The notes under the pieces were generated by a model, which saw nothing but the letters and a program-made list of their open reading frames with translations, made no database searches and was not told where the DNA came from. From Candidatus Enterousia sp. (GTDB lineage Bacteria; Pseudomonadota; Alphaproteobacteria; Rs-D84): 64,000 nt of DNA. Position numbers and translations under genes: made by a program. Shown here one piece after another: positions 49 through 46,655 of this stretch. The DNA lies in NCBI GenBank assembly GCA_045613445.1, contig JAZLAZ010000007.1:2696-66695 (forward strand), written 5' to 3'. Each line of letters begins with the position of its first letter. Within the stretch, counting starts at the first letter, position 1.

Positions 49-1863
49 ATGGCATTTGAAACAAAAAATTTCATTATTGATTTAGCGATGCAGTTAAATC
101 TGAACAACATGGACGATGCTACGCGTGCCAGATTGGCTGACCTGAAAAAAAAGGGTGTTGCAACCAAAGATCAAAATTCGTGGGAACCTGGCAAGGAACC
201 CCCAACGATAGATGCAATAACACCTGCAACTGCAACAACACCAGCAATATATAAATATAATGGGAATCCTGTCGCTGGTGGTATCGCTCCTGCGGTTAAT
301 GACTTAAATGATTTGTACTTAAAACTGGTTGTCATATTACGCGACTTAGCGGCAGATTCTGAATTAAGTGCCGAAGACCCCGTAAAATCATTTTTAAACA
401 ATTTTTATGGTGCCGGCAAGGCTGTTGAACCCTATACAGCAAGCGCCCTACCCCCAGCAGATGCGACAGATATTGGCAGATACATTTCAGCACACAAAGT
501 TCTGTTGGCTGCAGGGATGGGTATTTCTGAAAACGATTTAGATTCATTGGCTGGAACTTTAACTGGTGGCACGTACAATACCAATGCAAAATCATTAAAA
601 ACATTCGACAAATTTTTGGTCGGATTATATAACTGGAACGATAATGGTGGTGCACGCCCAATACCAGGTACTTTGCCCGGCTGTTTAATCACAGGTGGCG
701 ATATAGATTATGGAAAATTATTTGGCATAAGAAGCACCATTAATACACCAGTCAATCCAACTACTGGTCAATTAACACAATTGTCAGACAATATAAATAA
801 AATGTTTGGCAAATTGGTGTCTAATGAAAAATTATTTGAAAAATTTCAAAGCAAAGACGAAGACGGCAAAGTTTCAAGTTGGATTTTCAAAGGTATAAAT
901 AAATCCAATTATAAAACCGGCGACAATGCACTGGCACCAAAATATGATGATCGCAAACAATTCTGGGATGATGCCAAGGCAAAGATACAAGATTGGTATG
1001 TTGACACGCTTGGAAAATTAGAACAAAAGCATACTCGTCACCTATATACAACAAATGCCAGATATATTGTTGCAGGATTGATAAAAAAAGGCGTCAAACC
1101 AACAGATGGTACCGGCAAAATATTAGATACATTGGATGCAATAAATGGTGATTTACCAAACCCTGTACAAAAACAAGTAAAATGGGTAAAAGACACCCTA
1201 AAAAAAATGAAGGGAACTAATTTCTTTAAGGACGCCCTGCGTGATGGCGATCAGATGCGCCAGCTGGTTCAAGAAATAATCAAAGCTGCCGCACACGATG
1301 GGAAAAAAGAAGAGGCCAAAGTTGCGTTGGAAATGTTAGCAGTAATGCGATATACATTAACAACATCATCTGTTCGTGACCAATTAAAAAAGACAGAATT
1401 TAAACTGTTTTCTGACAGCAGTTTGTCTTTTAACAAAGGCAATAAATTTATGCAATCAATGACAAATGCGCTGGATAAAACATTAAAGTTTGGCATGATG
1501 GCTGCATTTGAAGTTGGAAACTTTGCAAAAAATTCAATCAAACAACAGGGCTTAAAATTTGGCAGTGGCACACAAAATCTGGACAAACGAACAACAGACA
1601 GCGTAGATTATATAGACCCAGACAAACAACAAATTATGGAAGAATTGTTTGGTTTTTGGGATTTTGTAAATTCTTCTGCGAACACCAAGGATTATAACAT
1701 ATTCCAAAGACATTCAAATGCACAAAAAAAGCGGGATTCAAACAACAAAGATAAGATAACGGTAAATCTGACAGCGGGATCACTGGATTTGGAACATACC
1801 ACAAATCAGCAAAAACAATTCTTGGAATATCTGCGTGACAATAATATTGGACGTGCCGCTTGA
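49..1863 (+). CDS. hypothetical protein, large, no recognisable motif
   Basis: Long uninterrupted ORF (track 7..1863 starts at TTG; first ATG at 49). No catalytic or family motif recognised by eye. Confidence 0.6.
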   Translation: MAFETKNFIIDLAMQLNLNNMDDATRARLADLKKKGVATKDQNSWEPGKEPPTIDAITPATATTPAIYKYNGNPVAGGIAPAVNDLNDLYLKLVVILRDLAADSELSAEDPVKSFLNNFYGAGKAVEPYTASALPPADATDIGRYISAHKVLLAAGMGISENDLDSLAGTLTGGTYNTNAKSLKTFDKFLVGLYNWNDNGGARPIPGTLPGCLITGGDIDYGKLFGIRSTINTPVNPTTGQLTQLSDNINKMFGKLVSNEKLFEKFQSKDEDGKVSSWIFKGINKSNYKTGDNALAPKYDDRKQFWDDAKAKIQDWYVDTLGKLEQKHTRHLYTTNARYIVAGLIKKGVKPTDGTGKILDTLDAINGDLPNPVQKQVKWVKDTLKKMKGTNFFKDALRDGDQMRQLVQEIIKAAAHDGKKEEAKVALEMLAVMRYTLTTSSVRDQLKKTEFKLFSDSSLSFNKGNKFMQSMTNALDKTLKFGMMAAFEVGNFAKNSIKQQGLKFGSGTQNLDKRTTDSVDYIDPDKQQIMEELFGFWDFVNSSANTKDYNIFQRHSNAQKKRDSNNKDKITVNLTAGSLDLEHTTNQQKQFLEYLRDNNIGRAA

Positions 1864-1888
1864 TTTTTTGTGCGATTTATGGTATAAT
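1860..1888 (+). promoter_or_regulatory. sigma70-type promoter, extended -10
   Basis: TTGATT (1860-1865), 17-nt spacer, TGgTATAAT (1880-1888). Confidence 0.55.
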
Positions 1889-1896
1889 ATAGGCAT

Positions 1897-1927
1897 GCGT
1901 CACTGGGAACAGTGGCGTTTGTTTTTT
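1897..1927 (+). terminator. intrinsic terminator hairpin 1 in leader of fibre-like gene
   Basis: GCGTCACTG / CAGTGGCGT 9-bp stem (2 G-U pairs), then TTTGTTTTTT. Confidence 0.55.
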
Positions 1928-1928
1928 A

Positions 1929-1961
1929 CCCTGCCCTGCACAATCGTGGCGGGGATTTTTT
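1929..1961 (+). terminator. intrinsic terminator hairpin 2 in leader of fibre-like gene
   Basis: CCCTGCC / GGCGGGG stem, then ATTTTTT. Lies 29 nt before the ATG at 1990. Confidence 0.5.
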
Positions 1962-1989
1962 AGCTAAATTAAACAAAAAAGGATTTTAT

Positions 1990-32183: not shown

Positions 32184-32210
32184 AAAAATCCCCCAAGTGG
32201 GGGATTTTTA
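32184..32210. terminator. bidirectional terminator AAAAATCCCCC-aagt-GGGGGATTTTT
   Basis: Perfect 7-bp GC-rich stem flanked by an A-run and a T-run. Closes the minus-strand phage-type cluster. Confidence 0.75.
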
Positions 32211-32468
32211 TTTTATTACTGCACCTTTTATCAGGGTCAGGTCTTCTTTGATATCATCAATCTTGATTTGGATTCTGGCGATACCTGTTTCCAAAATTGT
32301 TGTTCTGTTTTCCAGCGCAGTTATACGATTATCAACACGTTCCAATTCCAACACAGAAAAATCTTGCTTGGCAGCCCAGTAAATTACACCTGCGATAAAT
32401 ACGATTATAAACCAACTGTCACGCAAAAATTCAATTAAACCATTTACAGGATGTTGTTGCGATTTCAT
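32208..32468 (-). CDS. phage-cluster small membrane/coiled-coil protein (86 aa)
   Basis: One TM (WFIIVFIAGVIYWAA) plus a coiled coil. Last gene of the cluster. Confidence 0.5.
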   Translation of the reverse strand: MKSQQHPVNGLIEFLRDSWFIIVFIAGVIYWAAKQDFSVLELERVDNRITALENRTTILETGIARIQIKIDDIKEDLTLIKGAVIK

Positions 32469-32668
32469 GATTTATCCCCCCGCCCACGCGATACAAATGT
32501 TTCAATCTGATGCACCAACATGCGTTGCGATTCCAATGAACGCAATTCTGATTCTGTGGCATTTGCCCCCAGCACGCGTTCAATCGTTATATGACGCAAG
32601 TGCGTCAGCACACGCTGCCCAGATGCACCAGAAAATGTTTTGGCATATGCCTGTTCTATATCTGTCAT
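32465..32668 (-). CDS. phage-cluster small protein (67 aa), portal-adjacent
   Basis: Translationally coupled to the portal gene and the next ORF (4-nt overlaps). Faint resemblance to small portal-adjacent proteins of BPP-1-like phages, recalled from memory only. Confidence 0.45.
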   Translation of the reverse strand: MTDIEQAYAKTFSGASGQRVLTHLRHITIERVLGANATESELRSLESQRMLVHQIETFVSRGRGDKS

Positions 32669-33900
32669 AAAGCCCCCCCAATAATACTTTCTGTTGCGGT
32701 CATTTGTGCGATTGGTGCAATGTATTTTAATTCTGCATCGCTGTTTAATTTTATTTCTGGGATCAGACCGCGCGATGACAGAATCTGTAATCCCCTGTCA
32801 CATAACGGTCTGATAAATTCATGTAACAGACGACCATATGTCGCGCCCAAAATACGCATCATATCGGCATTGCGCGCCATAATTTCTGTTGCTGTCATTT
32901 CTTTTTCACTCAACAACCCCAGTCTGTCTACCAATAATGTGTGCCGTATGCGTTCACGCAAATCTTTTAATATAATTTGTGACACATCAAAATTCGCAGC
33001 ACTGGTCAACGGTGTAAGTCCTGATGATCCAACTGCCTTTGGTATAATTGCCCCTGGTGTTAAATTGATATTATTTAAGTTTACAACACCATCGTCATCT
33101 GCTTGCCAGATACCTGATACGGCAATTGTTGCGTTTTTTAATACCAGTTCTACGACTTTGTTCGCTGTTTTTATATCTGGCAATGCACGCATAATGGGAC
33201 CGCGACCATATAGTTCGCCACTGGCAACAGACCAACGAAATACGATATATGGATTTGTTTCAAATGTACCCGTTGATACAATATTATTTTCAATATCGCC
33301 ACCAACATCTAACCATGCTGTAAATTCTGTTCCAACCAAACTTTGCACCAATTTTAATTGTATTTCTGGGTCGTTCTTGATTGAATCACGCAAATTTGCA
33401 GGCGGTGTCCATGTTGGATATTTTTCCATCACTTCATTTGCACTCATCGATGTTGTGTGAAATATCGCGTTTGGTAAAATCGCAATATCTGATACTGGTA
33501 TCGCAGTAAAGTTAAATGCAGATGATGCACCAATTGGATTTTGCCCCATAAACAAACACGCTGTTCCCAAGGTTACTAAATCCATATAGCACTGGTGTAT
33601 CGTCGTGTAAAAATTAGAATCATTTAAGTGGGCACGCAACACAGATGTCGCATAATCAGCATCCGGTGATAATTCACTTTCGCGAACCAGTTGCAACCAC
33701 ATCGATTCTGGAGGTGTCAACAAAGTGTAAATGGATGCAGCCAAGTTATCTGCTGCATCTGATGCTGTTGCATCGTATAATGTTGCTAGATCCACATCAG
33801 ATGTTGGCATTGTATATCTGTGTGCGTCTTCCCAGCGCGAAATCCATGGTTCACGTAAACCAATGGCGCGTTTATAAAGTTGCACTAAATTATTTTGCAT
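32665..33900 (-). CDS. podovirus-type portal (head-to-tail connector) protein
   Basis: N-terminus LYKRAIGLREPWISRWEDAHRYTMP is typical of podovirus head-tail connector family proteins. Lies directly downstream of the terminase. Confidence 0.6.
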   Translation of the reverse strand: MQNNLVQLYKRAIGLREPWISRWEDAHRYTMPTSDVDLATLYDATASDAADNLAASIYTLLTPPESMWLQLVRESELSPDADYATSVLRAHLNDSNFYTTIHQCYMDLVTLGTACLFMGQNPIGASSAFNFTAIPVSDIAILPNAIFHTTSMSANEVMEKYPTWTPPANLRDSIKNDPEIQLKLVQSLVGTEFTAWLDVGGDIENNIVSTGTFETNPYIVFRWSVASGELYGRGPIMRALPDIKTANKVVELVLKNATIAVSGIWQADDDGVVNLNNINLTPGAIIPKAVGSSGLTPLTSAANFDVSQIILKDLRERIRHTLLVDRLGLLSEKEMTATEIMARNADMMRILGATYGRLLHEFIRPLCDRGLQILSSRGLIPEIKLNSDAELKYIAPIAQMTATESIIGGAL

Positions 33901-33923
33901 TTTTATTCCTTTTTGTTGTGTTG

Positions 33924-34787
33924 TTATATCTTGAAATTTGTATTTGCTGAAAATGTTTTAATTGTATGCCCCAATGGTCGCACGATATTTGGCTGTTGTG
34001 CAATTGCACCTGCGACTGCGTCCAGACCATCATCGTGCCCAATATATCCAACTGGTGACCAACCAATCATCTCTGACATCAATGGTGTTTTTTGAATACG
34101 AGCATGTGCATACAGTCGTCCAGTACTTAAAACAGGTTCAATTGCAGCCAAAATTCTGTCTGACTTTGATTTTGTATGTGATACACGATTTACATATACA
34201 CTGAATCCACAACGCATTGCACAATCATGCATAATTTCTGGAACGCCAATTCCAATACCGTTTGTTTCAATTGTTATTCTGGACAATCCGCGCACCCGCA
34301 TAAAGTCAATTACCATATCACACTGACGCGATAACGGAAATTGTTCTGAATCAAGTACTGCCAGATATAAAATATCGTGAATAAACACATGCTTGTTTTT
34401 ATCATCGCGGTATATCAGCACACAGGCACTGCCGTCACGTTTACTGCGACCTGTGGACGGATCCCAATACAAAACACAGCCAGAAATCAGATGTTTACCT
34501 ATTTTGGCTGACCGAGAATCAAATTCTTCGTCATAAAATAGCAAACCACCAGGATCTAACCTTGCGCGTTCTGGCGAAATAAATTCCAACATCATTTGGG
34601 CAGAAAAATGTCGTTCCCCCACTGTTTCTTGCATTTGGGCAATTTTTTTAACCGGAAAAAGTTCTGGCCACGCAGGATTTCCAGCACTGTCCACAATTGG
34701 AATCTTTAATATTTTATACCCAGACAAAAAAGGCGTTGAAAAAGCATTTTTTTCATATACCATTGAACCAAAGAAGGAATTTGACAT
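33924..34787 (-). CDS. terminase large subunit, C-terminal (nuclease) half of a split gene
   Basis: AWPELFP..FSAQMMLEF, YWDPSTGRSKRDGSACVLIY and GHDDGLDAVAGAI are RNase-H-like nuclease motifs. The first usable ATG at 34787 shares the palindrome CATG with the dnaB start. Confidence 0.7.
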   Translation of the reverse strand: MSNSFFGSMVYEKNAFSTPFLSGYKILKIPIVDSAGNPAWPELFPVKKIAQMQETVGERHFSAQMMLEFISPERARLDPGGLLFYDEEFDSRSAKIGKHLISGCVLYWDPSTGRSKRDGSACVLIYRDDKNKHVFIHDILYLAVLDSEQFPLSRQCDMVIDFMRVRGLSRITIETNGIGIGVPEIMHDCAMRCGFSVYVNRVSHTKSKSDRILAAIEPVLSTGRLYAHARIQKTPLMSEMIGWSPVGYIGHDDGLDAVAGAIAQQPNIVRPLGHTIKTFSANTNFKI

Positions 34788-36351
34788 GGACTTTACCCCT
34801 AAGACTTTACCAACCAATTTAGAAGCCGAACAGGCCGTATTGGCGGCGGTTTTAATGAACAATCGTGCGTTGGAACGCGTGTCTGAATTCCTGCGAGCAG
34901 AACACTTTTCGCATCCAGCACACCAAGAAATTTTCAAACTGGCAACCCGTCAATTCGAAGTTGGCATCCCATTTGATATTATCACCGCAAAAAACTATCT
35001 GGATCAGCAAGGTGTTCTGGAATCCGTCGGTGGCGTTGACTATCTGACACAATTATCTGGCGCAGGTGCAACTGTTGTAAATGTTGAACAATACGCAAAA
35101 ATAGTTTACGAACACGCAATGCGTCGTGATTTAATCGCATTGGGCCAAGATATTACTGACAAAGCTTTTATCGAAGATCTGGATAACCCTGTTATTCGAC
35201 AAATAGAAATCGCAGAACAAAAATTATTCGATATGGCCACAACAGGTTCGTCTGAACGCGAAGTATCATCTATTGAAACAGCACTAAATGCGGCATTAAA
35301 AGAAGCAGAAATCGCGTACAAAGCCGAAAATCAATTGTCTGGTCTAACCACTGGCTTGGATGCATTAGATAAATCAATCAGTGGTTTACACCATTCAGAT
35401 TTAATCATTATTGCTGGTCGACCTGCGATGGGAAAAACAACACTGGCAATGAACATGGCGTTTAATGCAGCACACGCAATTGCATACGGACGCGCAAACC
35501 CAAATTACAAGGGCGCAGTTGTATTTTTCAGTCTTGAAATGTCTGCGTCACAGTTGGCTGCGCGTGTATTATCATCGCAATCAAAAGTTCCTGCATCAGC
35601 CATGCGCGAAGGGAATTTGACAGACGAAGACTTTTTGAAACTGACACAATATGCATCCGCTATAAATAAAATACCATTGTTTATTGATGACACACCAGGT
35701 ATGTCGGTACCAATGATTCGCACCCGCGCACGCAGACTGGCACGTCAACATGGTGGCATTGCACTGATTGTTATCGACTATCTGCAATTGATGACATCCC
35801 CAGGTGGCAAAAAAAATGACAACCGTGTTCAAGAAATTTCCGAAATCACCCGCGGTTTGAAAATGCTGGCCAAAGATTTAGATGTACCTGTTATCGCATT
35901 GTCACAGTTGTCGCGTAGCGTTGAACAACGCGATGATAAACGACCACAGTTGGCAGACTTGCGCGAATCAGGATCTATTGAACAAGACGCCGGTATTGTT
36001 ATGTTCACATATCGTGAAGAATACTATCTGCAAAATCGCGATCCATCTGAAAGACTGTCAAATACAACCAATAACACAATGGTAGAAAGCTGGCAAAAGC
36101 GTCTTGATCGCGCCCGCGGCAAAGCCGATATTATCATCGGAAAAAACCGTCATGGACGCCCAGAAACAGTACGCACTGCGTTCTATGGCGATTACAGTTT
36201 ATTCGATAATTTGGACGAATTCCAATCACGCGGAGAAAATGAATTTGCACAGCCTGCACAGACAGTAACAGCATCTGCATTTGGCCCTGATCCAAATTCA
36301 ATGCCAACCGCAATCGATCCAGACGCAATCCCAGACGATATTCCATTGTAA
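34786..36351 (+). CDS. dnaB: replicative DNA helicase DnaB (with ~60-aa acidic/Pro-rich C-terminal tail)
   Basis: N-terminal LPTNLEAEQAVLAAVL, Walker A GRPAMGKTTLAMNMA, IDYLQLM, ALSQLSR, NRHG. Confidence 0.93.
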   Translation: MDFTPKTLPTNLEAEQAVLAAVLMNNRALERVSEFLRAEHFSHPAHQEIFKLATRQFEVGIPFDIITAKNYLDQQGVLESVGGVDYLTQLSGAGATVVNVEQYAKIVYEHAMRRDLIALGQDITDKAFIEDLDNPVIRQIEIAEQKLFDMATTGSSEREVSSIETALNAALKEAEIAYKAENQLSGLTTGLDALDKSISGLHHSDLIIIAGRPAMGKTTLAMNMAFNAAHAIAYGRANPNYKGAVVFFSLEMSASQLAARVLSSQSKVPASAMREGNLTDEDFLKLTQYASAINKIPLFIDDTPGMSVPMIRTRARRLARQHGGIALIVIDYLQLMTSPGGKKNDNRVQEISEITRGLKMLAKDLDVPVIALSQLSRSVEQRDDKRPQLADLRESGSIEQDAGIVMFTYREEYYLQNRDPSERLSNTTNNTMVESWQKRLDRARGKADIIIGKNRHGRPETVRTAFYGDYSLFDNLDEFQSRGENEFAQPAQTVTASAFGPDPNSMPTAIDPDAIPDDIPL

Positions 36352-37466: not shown

Positions 37467-38108
37467 ATGAAAGTACAAATTCGTGCAACTGCACAAAAAT
37501 TGGTAAACCTGTACCGTCAGGCGCATGTTATAGTTGGTGGCTGGTCGGCTGTAAACCCAATATTCATCAACGAGGCTGACGATGCTGTCATCCAAGAAAT
37601 ACGCGAATTACCAACAGGAAAAATGTTGGTTCGTCATATCGAAAATTTACGCAGTGGCAAAACATCGATGGATTCAATCGAACGTGAATTGTTGCCATAT
37701 GGCGGCATGATGGCAGGCAACACAATTGCGACAATCAATTTGACAAGTGACCAATGGACAGAACTGGAAAATGGAATTAAAAACTTTATTCCAACCCAAG
37801 AAGGTCTTGATGCATTCACAGAACTGGATGTTGTTCATAAATTCGGTGAAGAATGGCAAACAGCTATCAGTTCATTGATACAAACCAAACCACATCTGCG
37901 TAATGGATGGACAAACATAAATCAGACATTTAATGCATACAGATTATGGAATACTGCACGCGAAGTCATTTCAAATCCACTGACAGAACGCGTCCGCGCC
38001 CAGGTTCAATCTGATATGCCTGAATTTGAGACATATTTACCAATGTTTGGCGATGCAGGAACAGAATTATTGGCCAAACTGCGTACTTTTATCAGTACAA
38101 TCGACTAA
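37467..38108 (+). CDS. hypothetical protein (213 aa), third gene of the dnaB cassette
   Basis: ORF with RBS AGGAGAG. No homology recognised. Confidence 0.55.
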   Translation: MKVQIRATAQKLVNLYRQAHVIVGGWSAVNPIFINEADDAVIQEIRELPTGKMLVRHIENLRSGKTSMDSIERELLPYGGMMAGNTIATINLTSDQWTELENGIKNFIPTQEGLDAFTELDVVHKFGEEWQTAISSLIQTKPHLRNGWTNINQTFNAYRLWNTAREVISNPLTERVRAQVQSDMPEFETYLPMFGDAGTELLAKLRTFISTID

Positions 38109-38112
38109 ACAT

Positions 38113-38721
38113 TCACTGCGTTCGATATATCGTATCGTATGTATGCGGTGTGCCAATGTAAATCATTGTACCTGTTGGTGATAAAATAAAATCCAATTCA
38201 CGCAATCGTTCTCGTAAATTTTCGCGCTTTTGTGCTGTGTTGGATGTATTTGGCACTTCGACATCGTCACAAATTATTAAATCTGCACGCATACCTGTTA
38301 TGTTCCCATAAACACCCTGACATATCACAGATGGTTCACGAATGCCAATCGGTCTGTTTATTGTGATACGACCTGTTGCCCATTCTTTTTTATTTGCAGG
38401 AATCATATCTGTACAAAATGTATGATTTTCTAAAACATGCTTGATATGAGATACCATACGGGTTGCCAATGTATTTTCGGCAGATAAAATCAATATTCGT
38501 GTTTCTGGGTACAAATATAAAATACATGCTGCAAATACACCAACAACTGTTGATTTACCTGAATGACGAAACGCCATCAATAATCCCCTATGCGGATTTT
38601 CAGTCCAACAATCTACCAAAAAACGCATAATCTGGCGATGGTGCGCAGGTGTTGACAGTCCCAATATTCTGTTCCATTCGTCCAGAAATTTATAAAACTC
38701 CGTAATCATCGTTGTTTTCAT
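38113..38721 (-). CDS. terminase large subunit, N-terminal (ATPase) half of a split gene
   Basis: Walker A AFRHSGKST, Walker B DLIICDDVE, coupling motif IYIGTPH. The stop lies 4 nt from the end of the plus-strand cassette. Confidence 0.7.
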   Translation of the reverse strand: MKTTMITEFYKFLDEWNRILGLSTPAHHRQIMRFLVDCWTENPHRGLLMAFRHSGKSTVVGVFAACILYLYPETRILILSAENTLATRMVSHIKHVLENHTFCTDMIPANKKEWATGRITINRPIGIREPSVICQGVYGNITGMRADLIICDDVEVPNTSNTAQKRENLRERLRELDFILSPTGTMIYIGTPHTYDTIYRTQ

Positions 38722-39253
38722 TCGGTGCAGGTTCTGTAATCAGACCATAATCGTTTATCAATTTTGGTAATGCATTTTCCAACACAGACAACAAATTTTG
38801 ATACAGTCCCAGCACCGCCCCACCAGACAGTTTATCTGCAATTACTTGATTTGTATAATCCATCAAACGCTTTATATTGTCATGTTTGTTCTGCCATTCC
38901 AAAGTATCAACATTTATGCTGTGTAAATCTTGAAAAGCAGACAGTAAAAAATTAAAATCAGAATTCAAATCTTCTGGGTCTATTTTTTTGGTCGGCTGAT
39001 AATCAATTGTACGTGATAACGATATCTGACGAAATATATCTATCTTGGTATCTATAGCAGGTGCAACATCAAACACAATGTTTCCACCAGAAAAATCTTC
39101 GTTTGGCATGACAGCAAAATTATGATTTTCACCATCAATAACTTCATCAATTGCGACACGAACATCTGCAGTTTGAAAGAAAGGAAAAGAAAATGCAAAT
39201 TCTGTTGTCGCACCATCTGCAATATAAGAGATTTTATACATGTTATCCCCCAT
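38690..39253 (-). CDS. T7 gp17-N-like tail fibre/fibre-anchor protein (187 aa)
   Basis: MYKISYIADGATTEFAFSFPFFQTADVRVAID parallels the T7 tail-fibre N-terminal domain (..TYQLDGSNRDFNIPFEYLARKFVVVTL..). Confidence 0.55.
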   Translation of the reverse strand: MGDNMYKISYIADGATTEFAFSFPFFQTADVRVAIDEVIDGENHNFAVMPNEDFSGGNIVFDVAPAIDTKIDIFRQISLSRTIDYQPTKKIDPEDLNSDFNFLLSAFQDLHSINVDTLEWQNKHDNIKRLMDYTNQVIADKLSGGAVLGLYQNLLSVLENALPKLINDYGLITEPAPNENNDDYGVL

Positions 39254-39256
39254 TTT

Positions 39257-39604
39257 TTACCCAGCAATATCATCAAATCTTGATAATATTTTTTCCAGCA
39301 AGTTTACATTTTTAGCCTTGGTCTTTTTTAATTTAGCAATGTTTGATTGTCTTTTTTCTTCGTATGGGGCAGAAACTTCTGATTTCAATCGTTTTAATAC
39401 TGCACCTTCGGTTATGCCATTACCAGACATACCAGATGCGCCATATTTTGCACGTTGGGTGGCCAATGCCTTATTTACCAGATTTGTTTTTTCCGCTTCG
39501 TCAGCAGCCATTTTTTTCAGAATTTCTTTGCGTTCTGATTTAGCTGCTTTTTTAGCATCTTGATATTCCAAGATTTCTGTCACATCACTTACAATTTGTC
39601 CCAT
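39257..39604 (-). CDS. phage-cluster Lys/Ala-rich coiled protein (115 aa), possible internal virion protein
   Basis: Position between the tail-like gene and the fibre gene. Composition only. Confidence 0.4.
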   Translation of the reverse strand: MGQIVSDVTEILEYQDAKKAAKSERKEILKKMAADEAEKTNLVNKALATQRAKYGASGMSGNGITEGAVLKRLKSEVSAPYEEKRQSNIAKLKKTKAKNVNLLEKILSRFDDIAG

Positions 39605-39627
39605 TGTTTATATCCTTTGTTATTTTG

Positions 39628-41340
39628 TTATACTTTATACCAACCGTGTACACTGACCGATAAAACCGTTATTGGCATTGGTTCTGAACTGTGTATCGTC
39701 CACATCGGTTCAATCGCATTTTTTATTGTTCCTAATAAATTTATTGAAACATCACCGTTGTATCCGGACGACGAAATATCGTATACAGAATTTGGCAATG
39801 TTATACGATGCTTGTTTATTGATATTGATTTTGTATCAATCACACGTGCAACTATTTTTCGAACTTTGATGCGTGTCGCATTATGATTTGACGAACGCAA
39901 CGGTAACCCAGATGCAGTAAATGAAAAATTATATTGCCCCGCATCAATCAATGCTGTTGAATCAAAATATTCTAAAAATACAGCATCATCGCGTTTAACA
40001 ACAGCATATGTTTTGCCATCACATGACGCAACAGACATGAAACCGCCACGCGTTTTATATGTTCCCCATGCGGATACACCCAATGACGCATTTTGATTTA
40101 ATACAGCCATCGTGCCATTATCACACACAACAAACAACTGACGCGTGTTACTGTTATACACAATATCCAATGGTATGGTCATTAAATGTTTTGATAACGC
40201 ACATAAATCATTTGCATTATAATGTTCACCAATATCATCCAGACTTAGTTCACGAATATCACGACCATTACCTGATATAAAAACCGTCGCGCCTTCTATT
40301 TTTTGTGGCGCCAAAAAACGACGCATGTACGATCCAACCGATGTATGCTGTTTTATATCAACCGCAGATGGCGTCAGCGGTTTATTTGATATCGCCCATT
40401 CACCAGAATTAGTCAATATTTGTAAATTATCACTGCTGACAACAGTGCAAATTTCTTGTCGTTCTTGTGATAATAACGAAACAAATATCGCTTCGTCATC
40501 AAGACCTGTACCTGCACTGAAATTTTTATGATTTCCAACCTTGGACATCCATATACCACTGGGCCAAGAACGCGACCCTCCAAAAACTAATCTGTCTTGA
40601 TGAAAAGTGATACTGCGTGGCCATCCACGACGATTACTGAATGCCGCTTCGTACCATTCAGACACAGGGCCATTTGGTATGGTATATACAGCATTGATAT
40701 ATGCAACGATTTGCGTTGGGCTGATATATTCTGTAATTTCCCATTGATTTTCCAGCAAATGTAAACGCGTGCCAACACTGTCCGGTGTCCAAAAGTTTTT
40801 ATTCGTGGTAAATGTAGCATAATTATTCCCAGATGAATGCGTACTGATTGTTATCCGAATATCGTCAGAATCATCAAACCGCATAAACGGCATGTTCAAT
40901 GTCATATTACTGTTGCCTTCAAATTGAAATGCAGACAGACGAAATGCTGAACCCTGCTTTTGCAACACATATGGTTGATAATCAGGGTGAACAAATATCA
41001 TCGTACCAAAACGCTGGGCATACTGCACAGCAAACAAGTCATCATAAGACCATGGAGATGCTAAATCTTGGTGCAACTGGTTGTTATAATATACAGATAT
41101 ATGATGATCTGTCAGCACTAATATATAATCTTCGTTATCTGCGACAGAAAAACAGATTATTCTGGCATCACCAGACAACTGATTGACTGTTGTTAGTCCA
41201 TATCTGCGCGATATTGCACCACTGGCCAAAACATCCATATTTTCCAGTTTTGACAAACCGTTTATATTATCATGCGCAAAAAATTCCGGGGCAACTTCAC
41301 CATTTGCAAATGAATTTTGTGTTTTTATAAAACTTGCCAT
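39628..41340 (-). CDS. phage tail/nozzle-like structural protein (570 aa)
   Basis: N-terminus QNSFANGEVAPEFFAHDNINGLSKLENMDVLASGAISRRYG resembles podovirus tail tubular/structural proteins. Position after the adaptor-like gene. Confidence 0.5.
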   Translation of the reverse strand: MASFIKTQNSFANGEVAPEFFAHDNINGLSKLENMDVLASGAISRRYGLTTVNQLSGDARIICFSVADNEDYILVLTDHHISVYYNNQLHQDLASPWSYDDLFAVQYAQRFGTMIFVHPDYQPYVLQKQGSAFRLSAFQFEGNSNMTLNMPFMRFDDSDDIRITISTHSSGNNYATFTTNKNFWTPDSVGTRLHLLENQWEITEYISPTQIVAYINAVYTIPNGPVSEWYEAAFSNRRGWPRSITFHQDRLVFGGSRSWPSGIWMSKVGNHKNFSAGTGLDDEAIFVSLLSQERQEICTVVSSDNLQILTNSGEWAISNKPLTPSAVDIKQHTSVGSYMRRFLAPQKIEGATVFISGNGRDIRELSLDDIGEHYNANDLCALSKHLMTIPLDIVYNSNTRQLFVVCDNGTMAVLNQNASLGVSAWGTYKTRGGFMSVASCDGKTYAVVKRDDAVFLEYFDSTALIDAGQYNFSFTASGLPLRSSNHNATRIKVRKIVARVIDTKSISINKHRITLPNSVYDISSSGYNGDVSINLLGTIKNAIEPMWTIHSSEPMPITVLSVSVHGWYKV

Positions 41341-41353
41341 TTTTTTACCCCTA

Positions 41354-41872
41354 TTAAAATCTGGAACTGATTAAAAAAAAGTCTGATATAGTGTCACTAA
41401 TTGATGTTGTACTGTCGATGAATTTCGCGTTTTGCAGTTCTGATTCATACAATGCAACCAACATACGAAAAACTGTTTGATCGCCCAACAATGGTATACA
41501 AAATTCCATTGCTAAACGCGTAGCAACCAATGATGCAAAATATCCAGGAAATTTTTCTGGTGCTGTTTTAGTTATCGCAATTATATGTGTCGTATCAGCA
41601 TCAGATAAAATCTTATTGCCCATAATTTGACCGTCTGATTTTAGGACACGCAAAACATCTGATGGAATTACAAAATTATTATCTGTGTTTTTTACTAAAT
41701 CTATACTTTGTATCGCAAAACGCCATGGATATAATGACAATAATGAATCAGTAACTGTATCAAACAGTGTTCTGGATAATTGCACCGCAGCACTGTCATC
41801 TGTCAATGATTGTATTGGTGTTTCACCCAGTTTTAATAATGCCATAGAACATAAGTCTATCTTAGTAAGCAT
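41354..41872 (-). CDS. head-tail adaptor / tail tubular A-like protein
   Basis: Start at MLTKIDLCSMALLKLGE (RBS AGGAG). The I..AL..LG....SL.D.S pattern is typical of podovirus adaptor proteins. Confidence 0.45.
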   Translation of the reverse strand: MLTKIDLCSMALLKLGETPIQSLTDDSAAVQLSRTLFDTVTDSLLSLYPWRFAIQSIDLVKNTDNNFVIPSDVLRVLKSDGQIMGNKILSDADTTHIIAITKTAPEKFPGYFASLVATRLAMEFCIPLLGDQTVFRMLVALYESELQNAKFIDSTTSISDTISDFFLISSRF

Positions 41873-41964
41873 GTTTGGGTTCTCCTTTTTTTTGATGTTT
41901 ATTAGCAAAATATCAGGCCGGTAAAAATACCGGCCCAAACATATAAAAGATATATAAAAATATA

Positions 41965-42192
41965 TTATGCCAATGCAACTGTGGTTACATTTAAGTCTGT
42001 AATATTTATTTTCTTTATCGCTGTGTTATCAGATGCATTGATAATAATATCACCAATATTCATCAATGTTTTTACGCTGTTAAAATAACCATTTGCTGTG
42101 ATTGTTGATAATGTCTCAGCTGCACTGTAATGCCACAATGTAAATCCATTTGCGTATGCAATAACTGACAAGTTTTTATTTTGAAATGCCAT
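41965..42192 (-). CDS. phage-cluster small protein (75 aa) downstream of capsid
   Basis: ORF in operon position. No function assigned. Confidence 0.45.
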   Translation of the reverse strand: MAFQNKNLSVIAYANGFTLWHYSAAETLSTITANGYFNSVKTLMNIGDIIINASDNTAIKKINITDLNVTTVALA

Positions 42193-42236
42193 GTTTTTTC
42201 CTTTTGTTAAATCTTTTGATTTCTATTGTGTTTTAT

Positions 42237-43064
42237 TTATGCAGATGGTGCATCAGAACATTTAACGCGAACAATACCTGCATTATCAATCAATACTGCA
42301 CCTTGGGACATGCTATTGCTGATAAAGTGTGCAGCACGTTCACCATGCCAAGAAATATCTGTTTTAACTTCTTGACCACAAGCATGACCGACACTGGACG
42401 CATGATAAATAAAGCAATCACGATTTGTACCATCAACAGGCAAACCGTTGTACAGAACCCATGTAATTCCCAACCATTTGCGTGCTTCAAACCCGTTCAC
42501 CAACGGAGATGCATTGCCAACATAATCAGCAGATATAAATTCATCCATCGACAACAGTTCATTCCACTGGTGTACACCAACAACTGCAAAACGACGACCA
42601 TCGTCTGGAACATCGTTTGTATTCAAGACTTCAACAGCCGACAAGATTAAATCTTTGGTCAATCCAGATGTATAATCACCCACACCTGTGGTTACAGTAT
42701 TCATTGCACTGACAATCAATTCATCTGTCTTGCGACCCAATGCGTATGCACCAGCCGATGCCACAACGCGACGTTCATCAACATTGATTTTCAATTCATC
42801 CAATGCATCAACCCAATCACCTGCATAATAATCTTGCAGCATACATTCAATTGGTTCATGATTCAAATTCATCACAGGAACAATACCGTGACGCGATTTT
42901 GTGCTGGCAGTACCACGACCAACCTTTTGAAAGGTTGTTGATGCACCAACAACACCAGATTTACTGCGAACAGTTGAACGCAGTTTTGTGCCCATTTGCT
43001 GATAAGCCAAATGAACATCCGCTTCGAATTGTTTTACGAATACATTATCTATTGAAATAGACAT
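42237..43064 (-). CDS. major capsid protein (small, presumed HK97-fold)
   Basis: N-terminus VFVKQFEADVHLAYQQMGTKLRSTVR..TFQKVG is typical of podovirus major capsid proteins. Position after the scaffold-like gene. Confidence 0.6.
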   Translation of the reverse strand: MSISIDNVFVKQFEADVHLAYQQMGTKLRSTVRSKSGVVGASTTFQKVGRGTASTKSRHGIVPVMNLNHEPIECMLQDYYAGDWVDALDELKINVDERRVVASAGAYALGRKTDELIVSAMNTVTTGVGDYTSGLTKDLILSAVEVLNTNDVPDDGRRFAVVGVHQWNELLSMDEFISADYVGNASPLVNGFEARKWLGITWVLYNGLPVDGTNRDCFIYHASSVGHACGQEVKTDISWHGERAAHFISNSMSQGAVLIDNAGIVRVKCSDAPSA

Positions 43065-43310
43065 ACAAAAATCCTTTTGTTAAAAATTAAACATTTATGC
43101 AAATAACGCATATCAGATTTTGTGTTTTGGTTATGCAAATAATGCGCCATAAAAACAAAAAATTATTTGGGTCCGTAATGAATACAGATTATCCATAAAA
43201 AATATCAGTCAGACTGTGCACAATAATCTGACTGATACTTTTATAAAAACAGGGTCTGTGAATCACAGACCCTTGACATATAAAAACCCCACCATTATTG
43301 GGGAATTATA

Positions 43311-43709
43311 TTATTTTTTCTTTGCACATGCTTTTTTTGCAACTGGTTTTGCTGCTGCTTTCTTTGCAACTGGTTTCGCAGCTACTTTTTTTGCAACTGG
43401 TTTTTTCGCAGCTACTTTTTTTGCAACTGGTTTTGCTGCTGCTTTTTTTGCAACTGGTTTTTTCGCAGCTACTTTTTTTGCAACTGGTTTCGCAGCTACT
43501 TTTTTTGCAACTGGTTTTGCTGCTGCTTTCTTTGCAACTGGTTTTGCAGCTACTTTTTTTGCAACTGGTTTTGCTGCTGCTTTTTTTGCAACTGGTTTTG
43601 CTGCTGCTTTTTTTGCAACTGGTTTCGCAGCTGCTTTTTTTGCAACTGGTTTTGCTGCTGCTTTTTTTGCAACTGGTTTTGCTGCTGCTTTTTTCTTAAA
43701 CAAGAACAT
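43311..43709 (-). CDS. Lys/Ala/Pro 9-aa-repeat basic protein (histone H1 / AlgP-like)
   Basis: RBS AGGAGA. The protein is almost entirely (A)AAKPVAKK repeats. Minus frame chosen for its RBS, the cluster strand and the terminators downstream. Confidence 0.65.
   Translation of the reverse strand: MFLFKKKAAAKPVAKKAAAKPVAKKAAAKPVAKKAAAKPVAKKAAAKPVAKKVAAKPVAKKAAAKPVAKKVAAKPVAKKVAAKKPVAKKAAAKPVAKKVAAKKPVAKKVAAKPVAKKAAAKPVAKKACAKKK
43322..43696 (-). repeat. 27-nt (occasionally 30-nt) in-frame tandem repeat, about 13 units
   Basis: GCAACTGGTTTTGCTGCTGCTTTTTTT units alternating with TTCGCAGCTACT variants. Confidence 0.9.
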
Positions 43710-43813
43710 TCTTCTCTCCTATATTTTTTGAAGATAGAACAAATTTTTTTGTTCTTACTTTATATTTTATATGAAATATATTTTTTAGTAAAGAAGAAAG
43801 TGATATTTTTTTT

Positions 43814-44470
43814 CTACGAATATAATTTTTTAAATCCATTTTCTATTTTTCGGATGTATTCAACATCATTATCACGCCAATATTTTGGATCACGCATCAT
43901 GCGACGCAAATCAGAATCTGTTAAATTTTGCGTTTCATTTTTATCTGTTTTTACATCTGGTTCCATTGATTGCATCATCTTATAGACACTTTGTATTCCC
44001 TGGGGTGTAGAACATAACGCATCAAATGCATCACGTGGTAAAAACCGTTCACCAAATGCATTTATTGCATGCATTGCTTCATTCATTTTTTCTGTCCCAC
44101 CAAAAAAATTTTTTAATTCATTTATTGCAACACTTTCATTTTGTACAGAAAATAATTCTGATATTATTGGTGATAAATATTCATTTGCAATATTATAAAT
44201 TTTTTCAACTTGAGAAGTTGTCAATCCAATCTGAAAAAATTGTTCTCGCAAACTTTCATCATCATATAAATCATTTTTTGGATATTCAGATGCACTTTCT
44301 GGGACACCTATTGCACGATTAAATTTTCGTTTAGATTCTGCATCAGAATTTTCATTCGGTACTGATATCATTGTACCAATCTTTTTTTCCAGTTCTGTAT
44401 AAGATTTTATCAATGATTCCGAATTTAATGTTCCATCTTGGTTCAAAAATTTTTCTGGTATTTTATCCAT
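43814..44470 (-). CDS. scaffolding/capsid-assembly-like protein
   Basis: Start MDKIPEKFLNQDGTLNSESLIKSYTELEKKIG (RBS AAGGA). Helical, acidic, upstream of the capsid gene. Confidence 0.45.
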   Translation of the reverse strand: MDKIPEKFLNQDGTLNSESLIKSYTELEKKIGTMISVPNENSDAESKRKFNRAIGVPESASEYPKNDLYDDESLREQFFQIGLTTSQVEKIYNIANEYLSPIISELFSVQNESVAINELKNFFGGTEKMNEAMHAINAFGERFLPRDAFDALCSTPQGIQSVYKMMQSMEPDVKTDKNETQNLTDSDLRRMMRDPKYWRDNDVEYIRKIENGFKKLYS

Positions 44471-44666
44471 TACTTTTTCCTTTTGTTTCATTTGCTTTGC
44501 GCAAGAAATAAATTCCACCCAATGTAAAAATAGCTTGTAACATTGTAAAAATATCTGTATCACCAACCAAGTATGCAGCCAATGCTGACAGTATACCCGT
44601 TGCAGAAATTATATATGTACGATATCCAGACAGATAACCACCTTTGACTATTCTTTTCATATGCAA
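44463..44666 (-). CDS. holin-like small membrane protein (two TM)
   Basis: 67 aa, two hydrophobic segments, basic C-terminus. Immediately after the endolysin gene. Confidence 0.45.
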   Translation of the reverse strand: MHMKRIVKGGYLSGYRTYIISATGILSALAAYLVGDTDIFTMLQAIFTLGGIYFLRKANETKGKSNG

Positions 44667-44669
44667 TAC

Positions 44670-45068
44670 CTATAAATAAAATAATATTCCATCTATATCA
44701 TCAATATACCCACGTGCAATTGCCCATTGTGGTATAAAACTGGCATGATGAAATTTGGTTGCACCGTGACAACAATCAGACAATCCACCAGACAACATAC
44801 GCGACGCCACACGAACACACATTTCAAATTTACGGTTATTTATATTTTCGTCTGCAATTAAAATTTTATTTACGTCACTAAAAATCGTTTTATCTGATAT
44901 GATTTCCGATATTGCAACACCTGTTTTATTTGATAGATTTTGTATCATTGATGTCAACGCTTCGACAAGCAGCAACGATGTGGCACCTGTTTGTTCATAC
45001 ACAACACGTGCGACACGATATGCCAATGTTGCATGCATATCTGTGTTCTTTATCAATTTTAATTGCAT
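44670..45068 (-). CDS. SleB/Hydrolase_2-like cell-wall hydrolase (endolysin)
   Basis: C-terminal GATKFHHASFIPQWA motif and overall pattern of SleB-type phage/GTA lysins. Start set to MQLKLIK (ATG 45068, RBS AAAGGA) because the upstream codons are terminator hairpins. Confidence 0.55.
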   Translation of the reverse strand: MQLKLIKNTDMHATLAYRVARVVYEQTGATSLLLVEALTSMIQNLSNKTGVAISEIISDKTIFSDVNKILIADENINNRKFEMCVRVASRMLSGGLSDCCHGATKFHHASFIPQWAIARGYIDDIDGILFYL

Positions 45069-45085
45069 GACGAATATCCTTTGGT

Positions 45086-45114
45086 AAAAAAAATCCCATG
45101 CAAAATGCATGGGA
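45086..45114 (-). terminator. leader terminator 2 (proximal to endolysin gene)
   Basis: Minus strand: UCCCAUGCA-uuu-UGCAUGGGA followed by U8. Confidence 0.6.
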
Positions 45115-45117
45115 AAT

Positions 45118-45140
45118 AAAAAAACCACACAATTGTGTGG
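45118..45140 (-). terminator. leader terminator 1 / 16-bp perfect palindrome
   Basis: CCACACAATTGTGTGG followed on the minus strand by U7. Could alternatively be an operator. Confidence 0.5.
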
Positions 45141-45167
45141 ACATAATTTGTGCTGTTTATGTGAACA

Positions 45168-45196
45168 ATACTATCATATTTTCATTAAAAAGTCAA
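45168..45196 (-). promoter_or_regulatory. sigma70 promoter of the phage-type cluster
   Basis: Minus strand: TTGACT (45191-45196), 17 nt, TAGTAT (45168-45173). Confidence 0.6.
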
Positions 45197-45231
45197 GACA
45201 TTATTTCACAACCCGCGATTTTTCAAGACTT

Positions 45232-45912
45232 TTACACAATTATTTCATCACCATACACCAATAAATATCGTGTTCCACGACGCAAAACCAGCGCACCATT
45301 TTCATTTATACCAATCAATTCTGCCAGTTCACCTTGATACTTGACAGGTTTGTTTATGCACGCAGCCAATTCTGTCCATCTGGCGCGCACAGCGCGAAAA
45401 TCAGCACGACGCCACTTATCAATATTGCGCATCAATCTGTTTAGTAATTCATTCATTGGTATTTCAGAATAATTATCTAATTTGGTCGTCTGATATCGTT
45501 CAACAGTTGGATTTGAATTTACATTGATACCAATACCAACAACAACGAATCGGCCTGTATATTCAATCAAAATACCCGCCATTTTTTTATTATCCACCAA
45601 TATATCATTTGGCCATTTTATTGTTGGATGTACGCCAAATGACGCAATTGTTTCAGATACCGCCACTGCAATTGCATATGACAGACGCGCATCACGTTCA
45701 GGACATTCAAATATAAAACTGATATACAAATTTCCATGATGAGAAACCCATGTTCTGCGATATCGTCCACGCCCAGCAGATTGTGCCGCCGCCAAGACCG
45801 CCGTTTTATCAGTTGCACGCCCAGCATTGATTAGTTCATGCGCATAATCTTGGGTACTTGGGATTTTATCAAAAGATATCAATTTATAGTTTGCCAATAC
45901 TGTATACTCCAT
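45232..45912 (-). CDS. birA: biotin--[acetyl-CoA-carboxylase] ligase
   Basis: GRGRYRRTWVSHHGNLYISF signature, KWPNDILV. Start set to MEYTVLANYK. Confidence 0.85.
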   Translation of the reverse strand: MEYTVLANYKLISFDKIPSTQDYAHELINAGRATDKTAVLAAAQSAGRGRYRRTWVSHHGNLYISFIFECPERDARLSYAIAVAVSETIASFGVHPTIKWPNDILVDNKKMAGILIEYTGRFVVVGIGINVNSNPTVERYQTTKLDNYSEIPMNELLNRLMRNIDKWRRADFRAVRARWTELAACINKPVKYQGELAELIGINENGALVLRRGTRYLLVYGDEIIV

Positions 45913-46414
45913 TGTTATTTTGTATAAATTCCCGCCCATACATGCGACGCAATTGATAAATAGCCGTATCAACTGTATGCGTCGATGCATCGGGAGCATA
46001 TCCCAATGCACTTCTAAGTTGCATCGCTGTCATACCACCTGTTTGATACAAGCACGTCAGAATCTTGGCCTGAATTCGTGGTAAAACCACACTTTTTCCA
46101 AAAATCTTTGTCAAAACAGCACTGTTATCCGATATGCCCAATAATAAAGATTTTAATTCTGTTGGTGATAAAACATCTGAAATTTTTATATCATCAAAAT
46201 TGATATCTGTCACAGACGGTGCATCCAAGACACACGCACCCAAATCCCCCAGTATTTGTCGCCATACAATATCTGATGTATAAATACGAATACCTGATAG
46301 CATAGTAATATCGTAGCGAATAGACATAAAATTGTCCAATAAAAAAACCATATCTGTATTAAACCGATATGGTTTTTTGGGTATTAGTTTCCCATTGCAC
46401 AAACTTTTACCCAC
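45884..46414 (-). CDS. hypothetical protein with C-terminal OmpR-type winged-helix-like region
   Basis: LTCLYQTGGMTAMQLRSALGYAPDASTHTVDTAIYQLRRMYG..GVYSIG resembles a Trans_reg_C domain. Confidence 0.45.
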   Translation of the reverse strand: MGKSLCNGKLIPKKPYRFNTDMVFLLDNFMSIRYDITMLSGIRIYTSDIVWRQILGDLGACVLDAPSVTDINFDDIKISDVLSPTELKSLLLGISDNSAVLTKIFGKSVVLPRIQAKILTCLYQTGGMTAMQLRSALGYAPDASTHTVDTAIYQLRRMYGREFIQNNNGVYSIGKL

Positions 46415-46655
46415 GACTGTTATCAGGTTCTGGGTCTATAAACTTAGTAAAATCCTGAATTCTGGCACCCGTAGACGACAGAATTTTTGATATACTGTTT
46501 GTTGATGGCCAACGCGGTTGACCTTCTTTGGACCAACGTTTACTTCTGTTAAAGGTCGTTGGGTCCAATCCACTGCACTTTGCCAAACCAGAACACGACA
46601 TACCATGTTCCATGGCAAATTTTTCGATTGCATGCCAGACATCATCATGTGTCAT
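46407..46655 (-). CDS. HTH protein resembling the N-terminal domain of COG2932-type (CI/LexA-like) repressors
   Basis: WHAIEKFAMEHGMSCSGLAKCSGLDPTTFNRSKRWSKEGQPRWPSTNSISKIL. No peptidase domain attached. Confidence 0.55.
   Translation of the reverse strand: MTHDDVWHAIEKFAMEHGMSCSGLAKCSGLDPTTFNRSKRWSKEGQPRWPSTNSISKILSSTGARIQDFTKFIDPEPDNSRG

Follow-up and report, generated by a model that had tools for sequence, protein, structure and literature searches.

A candidate default-off transcription gate ahead of phage-derived lysis and particle genes in Candidatus Enterousia

Control of lysis and particle genes by terminators that lie close to the promoter has been described in several systems. These include the PR'-tR' region of lambdoid phages with its Q protein (bioRxiv 10.1101/651190; PMC9388147) and the AlpA system of Pseudomonas, in which the terminators of alpB and PA0807 begin 54 and 26 nt, respectively, after the start site (PMC7969949); in Caulobacter, GafZ serves the cluster that encodes a gene transfer agent (GTA) (PMC11150451). 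A comparable arrangement is found on the minus strand of a 64,000-nt stretch of DNA from Candidatus Enterousia sp. (GenBank assembly GCA_045613445.1, contig JAZLAZ010000007.1, positions 2,696 to 66,695), hereafter the window. At positions 45066-45196, between birA and the gene for a probable endolysin (the lysin), lies a leader composed of a strong-looking promoter, two tandem terminators, a ribosome-binding site (RBS) and the ATG of the lysin gene; a holin-like gene and a T7/BPP-1-like set of particle genes follow (coordinates in Table 1). Comparison of this leader with its orthologues in related species makes it rather probable, at slightly better than an even chance, that it is a cis-acting transcription gate, off by default and opened by antitermination.

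The lambdoid PR'-tR' region and the Enterousia leader share a sigma-70 promoter of constitutive type with an intrinsic terminator immediately behind it, lysis genes ahead of particle genes, and further terminators downstream; a possible -10-like hexamer in the initial transcribed region would be one more resemblance. A lambdoid late cassette on a small scale is also present in the Enterousia genome itself, on contig C19. The two differ in that birA rather than Q lies upstream of the leader, no Q-family protein being conserved in the lineage, and in that two tandem terminators are present here, from only +21. Moreover, the Enterousia element is chromosomal, vertically inherited and fixed across a bacterial order, and its module is podovirus-like. 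In the AlpA system (the alpB promoter with tB, and the PA0807 promoter with two terminators; PMC7969949, PMC9371919) domesticated self-lysis and pyocin-region genes are likewise found behind terminators 26-54 nt past the start, the gate opens once a small DNA-binding protein has been loaded at the promoter, and multiple loci come under the same control, as would the loci described below. Enterousia differs in lacking an AlpA-family protein; no shared element between the -35 and -10 boxes is evident in its two leader types, nor has a LexA-type self-cleaving repressor been demonstrated.

The GafYZ system of the Caulobacter crescentus GTA (CcGTA; PMC11150451) is, like the present one, alphaproteobacterial, and co-regulates a domesticated particle cluster and dispersed accessory loci; its intra-cluster terminators are bypassed by a host-encoded factor without similarity to Q. 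CcGTA has a weak, activator-dependent promoter and a terminator after the first gene, whereas in Enterousia the promoter is strong-looking and the terminators precede the first gene, and CcGTA is HK97/siphovirus-like where the module here is T7/BPP-1-like. With NusG paralogues (RfaH-ops, LoaP, UpxY) long surface or particle operons are similarly read through terminators after recruitment at a leader, but only the housekeeping NusG is present in this genome. The put RNA of phage HK022 also has two stem-loops immediately downstream of a promoter in a phage-derived operon; the put hairpins lack U-runs and are themselves antiterminators, whereas both hairpins described here are canonical terminators.

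Anatomy and conservation of the leader

Reading of the minus strand across 44900-45400 placed the promoter, the two hairpin-plus-U-run elements, the RBS and the ATG at 45068 exactly, to the base, where an earlier note on this DNA had reported them. Transcription is inferred to begin at position 45160, with the A of a CA dinucleotide that is invariant and lies 7-8 nt past the -10 box. Hairpin 1 has a 6-bp stem (CCACAC/GTGTGG) with an AATT loop and U7. Hairpin 2, which starts three bases beyond the T7 of terminator 1, has a 9-bp stem (UCCCAUGCA/UGCAUGGGA) with a UUU loop and U8. Median stem energies are -7.8 and -13.4 kcal/mol for hairpins 1 and 2, respectively. Both are G+C-containing hairpins with an immediate U-run, as intrinsic terminators are, and both were flagged as terminator-like in a consensus scan, which counted 17 such sites in 10 kb where shuffled sequences gave 6.4 +/- 2.8. 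In the same scan, matches to promoters were at chance level (43, with 42.6 in shuffles), so that the promoter is not acceptable from its consensus alone; it is conservation that singles it out. A search of the whole window against Rfam returned tRNAs only.

Upstream regions were collected from 37 lysin loci of related species and yielded 35 distinct leader sequences, in all of which every element occurs in the same order and with the same spacing. The -35 box reads TTGAC[T/A] in 35 of 35, the 17-nt spacer ends in TGn, and the -10 box conforms to TGnTAnnAT in nearly all, two leaders carrying TATGCT or TATACT. Hairpin 1 begins at +19 to +22 and is followed by its T-run; each stem has at least five T residues in the next eight bases in all 35 leaders, and 20-39 nt separate the end of hairpin 2 from the ATG. 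The terminators are invariably downstream of the promoter and never between birA and the promoter.

This order bears on whether the hairpins could be ordinary gene-end terminators of the birA operon, the promoter match being fortuitous or irrelevant. The stop codon of birA, on the same strand, does precede the -35 box by only 36 nt, and promoter-like matches are no commoner than chance in such AT-rich DNA. Nevertheless, the 35 leaders all retain the -35 box, the TG-extended -10 and the 17 bp between them while the surrounding intergenic DNA varies, the same order of promoter and then terminators is found at loci with unrelated upstream genes and in other families, and no space remains for another promoter between terminator 2 and the ATG. 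Many species also have a separate, imperfect hairpin-like element, with a consensus near CCGCGGAAATCYGCGGGTTTG, right after birA and ahead of the -35 box (45197-45231 in the window; equivalents at loci L002-L038), which makes the two downstream terminators unnecessary for ending birA. This element may end birA transcripts weakly, or it may serve as a binding site placed 45-65 bp ahead of the transcription start. Termination of the birA operon is the least probable of the explanations considered for the leader.

The stems themselves vary among the orthologues, with 12 distinct sequences for hairpin 1 and 27 for hairpin 2. A covariance model built on eight leaders recovered all 35 at 41-95 bits and was used to align the paired positions. 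In this alignment, which was fitted to structure and favours pairing, 96.6% of stem cells pair, compared with 84.5% after shuffling of partners, where none of 500 shuffles attains the observed level, and with 26-55% in a control with the partners slid by 1-3 columns; the raw stem table agrees with the slid controls. Compensatory changes, on both sides of the pair, are present in 14 of the 16 stem pairs. They affect five of the seven pairs of hairpin 1, in which 99% of cells pair, and nine of nine in hairpin 2, and G-U pairs occur in some species. By this comparative evidence the promoter, the two terminators and the gene are a selected unit, from which it follows that termination is very probably the default state, as the earlier note had proposed.

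The same note had suggested that the palindrome of hairpin 1 might instead be an operator for a nearby helix-turn-helix (HTH) protein; hairpin 1 would then act mainly as DNA, in repression of the promoter, and not as an RNA terminator. In this genome it is indeed a perfect 16-bp palindrome, at +21 to +36, its arms (CCACA...) are less variable within the genus than those of hairpin 2, and HTH82, P176 and a dual-HTH protein are encoded nearby in every species. These proteins are, however, still encoded in genomes that lack the module. The palindrome arms bear no resemblance to those of other genera, whereas HTH82 shows 84-98% identity across the genus. The constant U-run behind hairpin 1 (35 of 35), the G-U pairs of some species and the asymmetry of the 3-4-nt loops also disfavour an operator, which as the main function of hairpin 1 is considered highly improbable. 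A dual role within the genus, as operator and terminator, is possible.

Conservation within the genus extends to the sequence and length of the first 20 nt of the predicted transcript. The transcript start, (C)ATAAACAGCACA(A/G)ATT, falls exactly seven bases after the -10 box, and among the 35 leaders T2 and A4 are found in 35, A14 in 29, T15 in 31 and T18 in 31, with +17 unconstrained. The conserved +14, +15 and +18 correspond to positions 2, 3 and 6 of a -10-like hexamer, RATTNT. Two other functions for this region were examined and rejected. A leader peptide is contradicted by the presence of an ATG within the first 25 nt in only eight of 35 leaders and by a 16-nt 5' end too short for a Shine-Dalgarno sequence. 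A riboswitch or an alternative antiterminator fold would have to be accommodated in a 20-nt 5' segment that is short and unstructured, and the sole alternative pairing, with the RBS in this genome, looks trivial.

Beyond the genus, in other genera of the family and in families f3 and f4 of the order, a TG-extended promoter is followed by one to three hairpin-plus-T-run elements ahead of the lysin gene, and both the stems and the transcript start are unrelated in sequence to those described above. Retention of the layout while these sequences differ entirely points to the layout, rather than any particular sequence, as the target of selection. Certain further lineages carry the lysin gene within an operon, downstream of a gene that encodes a coiled-coil membrane protein; there the lysin gene lacks its own leader.

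The leader is also linked to the module in its loss. Genome G078, from the same genus, has four genes for cysteine-rich secreted proteins (locus L098; G078:C14:5000-13000) in place of the whole module between P213 and birA; an ordinary promoter and RBS, without terminators, follow birA, and the leader is gone. Whole-genome searches of G078 and eight other module-less genomes with the leader model, which is poorly sensitive outside the genus, gave E <= 0.01 in two only, both at ordinary gene-end terminators. Such losses are difficult to reconcile with a small-RNA gene, that is, a trans-acting RNA of about 45-75 nt with a single-stranded 5' seed (AUAAACAGCACAAAUU) and only an incidental position before the lysin gene. 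The unit would have its own promoter and terminator, as such a gene requires, and its conserved, unstructured, A-rich 5' segment is followed by a hairpin and a U-tail. Yet it was lost along with the module in G078, with no copy elsewhere in that genome or in the other module-less ones, the seed is not kept in other genera though the layout is, and fibre-type leaders (see below) have no free 5' segment. An RBS and ATG, moreover, always follow within the short distance given above, and a target search of the genome with the 5' segment gave matches of 10-13 nt only, none of them at a ribosome-binding site. A small RNA is therefore a very unlikely product of this locus.

Recurrence of the layout and the proposed gate

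The Enterousia genome (0.96 Mb in 27 contigs, 38.6% G+C) was scanned for tandem terminators and for extended -10 promoters followed by terminators. The extended -10 promoter has 172 matches genome-wide, and a terminator follows in only 11. A promoter, two tandem terminators, an RBS and an ATG occur together at four loci, of which the identifiable products are all phage-derived. The recurrence of the layout at 1860-1989, reported in the earlier note, is real, and two further loci, on contigs C18 and C3, have now been added to it; at these three loci hairpin 1 begins at about +3 to +16. The leader at 1860-1989, of the fibre type, has a first hairpin GCGTCACTG/CAGTGGCGT with UUUGUUUUUU from about +3 and a second, CCCUGCC/GGCGGGG, with U6, after which comes the RBS. 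Leaders of this type are kept upstream of most of the 29 genus orthologues examined; the first stem covaries, and sometimes only one terminator is present. In this genome the Mtd_N fibre gene lies 30 kb off, behind its own promoter-terminator leader and ahead of ackA, whereas at loci L063 (genome G306) and L065 (G019) the fibre gene stands directly after a small coiled-coil gene downstream of the portal gene, without a leader. Being leaderless when in the portal operon and gated when detached, the fibre gene belongs to the same particle system.

Three details of the additional loci may be recorded. The direct repeat of the tRNA 3' end on C18 looks like an integration scar. At the same locus the ATG of the leader is out of frame with the lysozyme reading frame, which could reflect an unusual start, a frameshift or an error of assembly. 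Beside a tRNA gene on contig C13 (34338-34560, minus strand) stands a second fibre paralogue of the Mtd_N type; it is preceded by TTGATT-17-TGGTATAAT, a single imperfect hairpin and T8, and may be a fifth, single-terminator member of the regulon proposed below.

In the proposed gate, a generic strong sigma-70-type promoter (good -35, 17-bp spacer, extended -10) would fire near 45160. The transcript would be ended at about 45 nt by terminator 1, and escapers at about 75 nt by terminator 2, so that the endolysin-holin pair and the phage-particle genes behind the terminators would stay silent. Expression would need an RNA polymerase made resistant to termination by a factor that most likely loads near the promoter, when polymerase is within the conserved first 20-27 nt. 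If it acts as lambdoid pause elements do, the RATTNT at +13 to +18 could retain sigma and make polymerase pause near +26 to +28, immediately before hairpin 1 is able to form. Further terminators inside the cluster mean that any read-through must be processive. The same logic would gate at least three other phage-derived loci (the fibre gene, the lysozyme gene and the gene on C3), and all of these together could belong to a single regulon serving a domesticated system for podovirus-like particles and lysis. The conserved layout and the mutations that preserve the hairpins most likely mean that lethal genes are held off until a factor permits read-through.

Several findings weigh against such a gate. 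The possible -10-like pause motif cannot be clearly recognised in other genera, nor in the fibre-type leader, in which a hairpin from about +3 takes up the space that a separate pause element would need. Beyond generic promoter features the two leader types have no sequence in common, with no evident single sequence-specific loading site, the number of terminators ranges from one to three between species, and a possible internal promoter precedes the capsid gene.

The search for a factor adds to these points. PF02357, which would detect a NusG paralogue, has one match only in the genome, the housekeeping NusG on contig C24, and a factor of RfaH/LoaP type is for this reason unlikely. The AlpA family (PF05930) has no match in the genome, control genomes being matched, and neither has the lambda-Q family (PF03589); a T7-type RNA polymerase (PF00940) was found neither in the genome nor in the control genomes. 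Contig C19 (13000-33500) resembles a lambdoid prophage, with a GpJ-type tail tip protein, recombination genes and RusA (E 2e-17). Directly after RusA a 116-residue protein (C19:30679-31029) weakly matches Phage_antitermQ (PF06530, E 0.002-0.006). Its gene is followed by a promoter, the -10 box of which, TAAGAT, recurs a few bases further on in the manner of a -10-like pause element, and then by a single terminator and a gene for a holin-like protein. As part of a sporadic prophage, found in two of 300 related genomes, this Q-like protein was ruled out as the conserved factor.

Nor do the proteins encoded near the leader provide a candidate. HTH82, P176 and P213 have no match among PDB sequences, PHROGs or NCBIfam, and the dual-HTH protein matches generic repressor heads only. 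P213 (window 37467-38108) has 1158 homologues, all unnamed and all in metagenome bins labelled Alphaproteobacteria; its AlphaFold model is all-helical with a mean predicted local distance difference test score (pLDDT) of 75, and the best PDB fold match, at E 0.27, amounts to no match in the fold library. In a phylogenetic profile made with a concatenated query across 37 genomes, five genomes that lack capsid, portal and lysin (G078, G099, G122, G101 and G241) retain the dual-HTH protein and P213. The first three of these also keep P176, and G078 keeps HTH82 as well. Four other genomes are without the dual-HTH protein, P213, P176 and the module, and two of them, G136 and G230, retain an HTH82-like gene. 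None of the four proteins is tied to the module by its profile, which gives no grounds for taking any of them as the factor. The antiterminator called for in the earlier note is thus not supported as a member of any known Q-, RfaH- or LoaP-like family; it is the layout that suggests its existence.

The lack of an antiterminator family is in keeping with a factor-free attenuator, in which a strong promoter and imperfect terminators would set a low, low-noise, constitutive level of expression, or one that tracks nucleoside triphosphate pools, NusA or ppGpp. A terminator number of one to three among species and loci is as dose tuning predicts, and no specific motif is common to the two leader types. 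Both terminators are nonetheless canonical and strong-looking in their U-runs and stem energies, and constant leakage would be risky with a holin-endolysin pair among the gated genes. The extra terminators inside the cluster also speak against attenuation, as does the 20-nt start, the conservation of which in sequence and length within the genus is needless for a plain attenuator. An attenuator of this kind is regarded as unlikely.

For the antitermination gate, a more far-reaching form may be put forward tentatively, as possible rather than probable. A factor or mechanism of an undescribed kind, neither Q nor AlpA nor a NusG paralogue, would control a podovirus-derived, GTA-like particle-lysis regulon. 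Polymerase would ignore at least six terminators and might run antisense through the dnaB cassette to the second terminase half and the portal gene, tying particle production to the shutdown of host replication.

If the gate works as proposed, it would be the master switch of a phage-derived particle-lysis system fixed in most species of an uncultured gut order. The bacterial group has genomes under 1 Mb (PMC12306168), and the full text of its published description mentions neither phage nor prophage (PMC12306168). Genomes of this size rarely keep dispensable things. The switch is short (~130 bp) and portable, and none of the known antiterminator families tested being present, RNA polymerase might here be modified by a factor of a new class. 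Antitermination control of GTA-like elements, described so far for Caulobacter GafZ, would be extended to a podovirus-type module, and a promoter with tandem terminators provides a sequence signature for finding dispersed members of the regulon.

Putatively gated genes and flanking genes

Table 1. Features of the leader, of the loci with the same layout and of the neighbouring genes (positions in the window unless a contig is named).
Feature	Position	Strand	Remarks
-35 hexamer TTGACT	45191..45196	minus	sequence reading; context cTTGACTTTT
Extended -10 TGaTAGTAT	45168..45176	minus	TG 45176-45175; -10 box TAGTAT 45173-45168; 17-nt spacer after -35
Initial transcribed region ATAAACAGCACAAATTATGT	45141..45160	minus	7 bases between -10 box and region
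-10-like RATTNT	45148-45143 (+13 to +18)	minus	inside initial transcribed region
Terminator 1	45118..45140	minus	CCACACAATTGTGTGG 45140-45125 (perfect 16-nt palindrome, +21 to +36), then T7 45124-45118
Terminator 2	45086..45114	minus	TCCCATGCA-ttt-TGCATGGGA 45114-45094, then T8 45093-45086
RBS AAGGA and ATG of first gated gene	RBS 45081-45077; ATG 45068-45066	minus	sequence reading
Probable endolysin, 132 residues, SleB/Hydrolase_2-like	44670..45068	minus	two independent weak matches: PF07486 E 0.0013 (under its cut-off); PHROG 938 endolysin E 2e-4
Holin-like protein, 65 residues	44463..44660	minus	two hydrophobic segments judged by eye
T7/BPP-1-like structural module	38113..44470	minus	Pfam and PHROGs
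Three tandem terminator-like hairpins between Lys/Ala-repeat and capsid genes	43203..43303	minus	consensus scan, tandem-terminator scan
Internal terminator-like hairpin after 75-residue-protein gene	41913..41938	minus	consensus scan
Terminase nuclease half, T7-type portal, two small genes	32208..34937	minus	portal PF12236 E 8.7e-82; PHROG 38 matches positions 468-705
birA, class I biotin ligase, outside gated unit	45232..45911	minus	PF03099 E 3e-20
Second leader, fibre type	1860..1989	plus	TTGATT-17-TGgTATAAT; ATG 1990 of Mtd_N tail-fibre-like gene (PF18454 E 3e-15)
Lysozyme locus	contig C18:1-1200		GH24 phage lysozyme, PF00959 E 2.5e-18; beside tRNA gene and repeat of tRNA 3' end
Fourth locus	contig C3		gene of no known product, running off contig

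The first gene behind the leader, for the 132-residue probable endolysin, occurs as a single copy in 257 of the 300 genomes sampled from the order; among the 223 of high quality it does so in 201. The holin-like protein that follows has no family match in Pfam or PHROGs. The structural module begins with a T7-type scaffold, a Lys/Ala-repeat histone-H1-like protein, the major capsid protein (PF19821, E 1.7e-70), a 75-residue protein and tail tubes A and B, and continues with a 115-residue protein, a T7 fibre N-domain protein and the ATPase half of the terminase. The nuclease half and the portal gene are separated from this main cluster by an opposite-strand block of dnaB, the dual-HTH regulator and P213. 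The Lys/Ala-repeat histone-like gene is kept in G078, beside P213, which suggests that the protein has a host function independent of the capsid.

The claim of the earlier note that the promoter drives the whole particle locus is uncertain. Three tandem terminators and a possible promoter precede the capsid gene, and the C-terminal half of the terminase and the portal gene lie beyond the opposite-strand dnaB cassette. In the pre-capsid region (window 43065-43310, minus strand) the three hairpins are followed, right before the capsid gene, by two direct copies of (C/T)GCNTTATTTGCATAA together with TTGCAT -35-like boxes. The region may be a second, activator-dependent control point inside the cluster; the leader model also matches the equivalent pre-capsid place in six other species. 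At the far end of the cluster only 4 nt separate the stop codon of P213 (plus strand) from that of the terminase ATPase half (minus strand) (window 38108-38113); the two genes are convergent, with no terminator between them. Any polymerase reading through from the particle genes would transcribe P213, the dual-HTH gene and dnaB antisense on its way to the nuclease half of the terminase and the portal gene.

Upstream of birA lie the genes for P176 (176 residues, a weak winged-helix match) and HTH82 (82 residues, Cro/CI-type HTH) and priA, and the order HTH82-P176-birA-leader-lysin-holin-scaffold is conserved at every locus compared. Between species (loci L002-L038 against window 43814-46655) identity is 64-94% for the scaffold, 67-93% for the holin-like protein, 84-98% for HTH82 and 95% for a capsid fragment, compared with 37-67% for birA; as judged from these values, the structural genes are under stronger constraint than the housekeeping birA. 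The P176 gene (window 45884-46414) overlaps the start of birA, and the C-terminal 60 residues of its product resemble, by eye, the N-terminal winged helix of class II BirA proteins. P176 might thus be a split-off DNA-binding domain of BirA and not an OmpR-type regulator.

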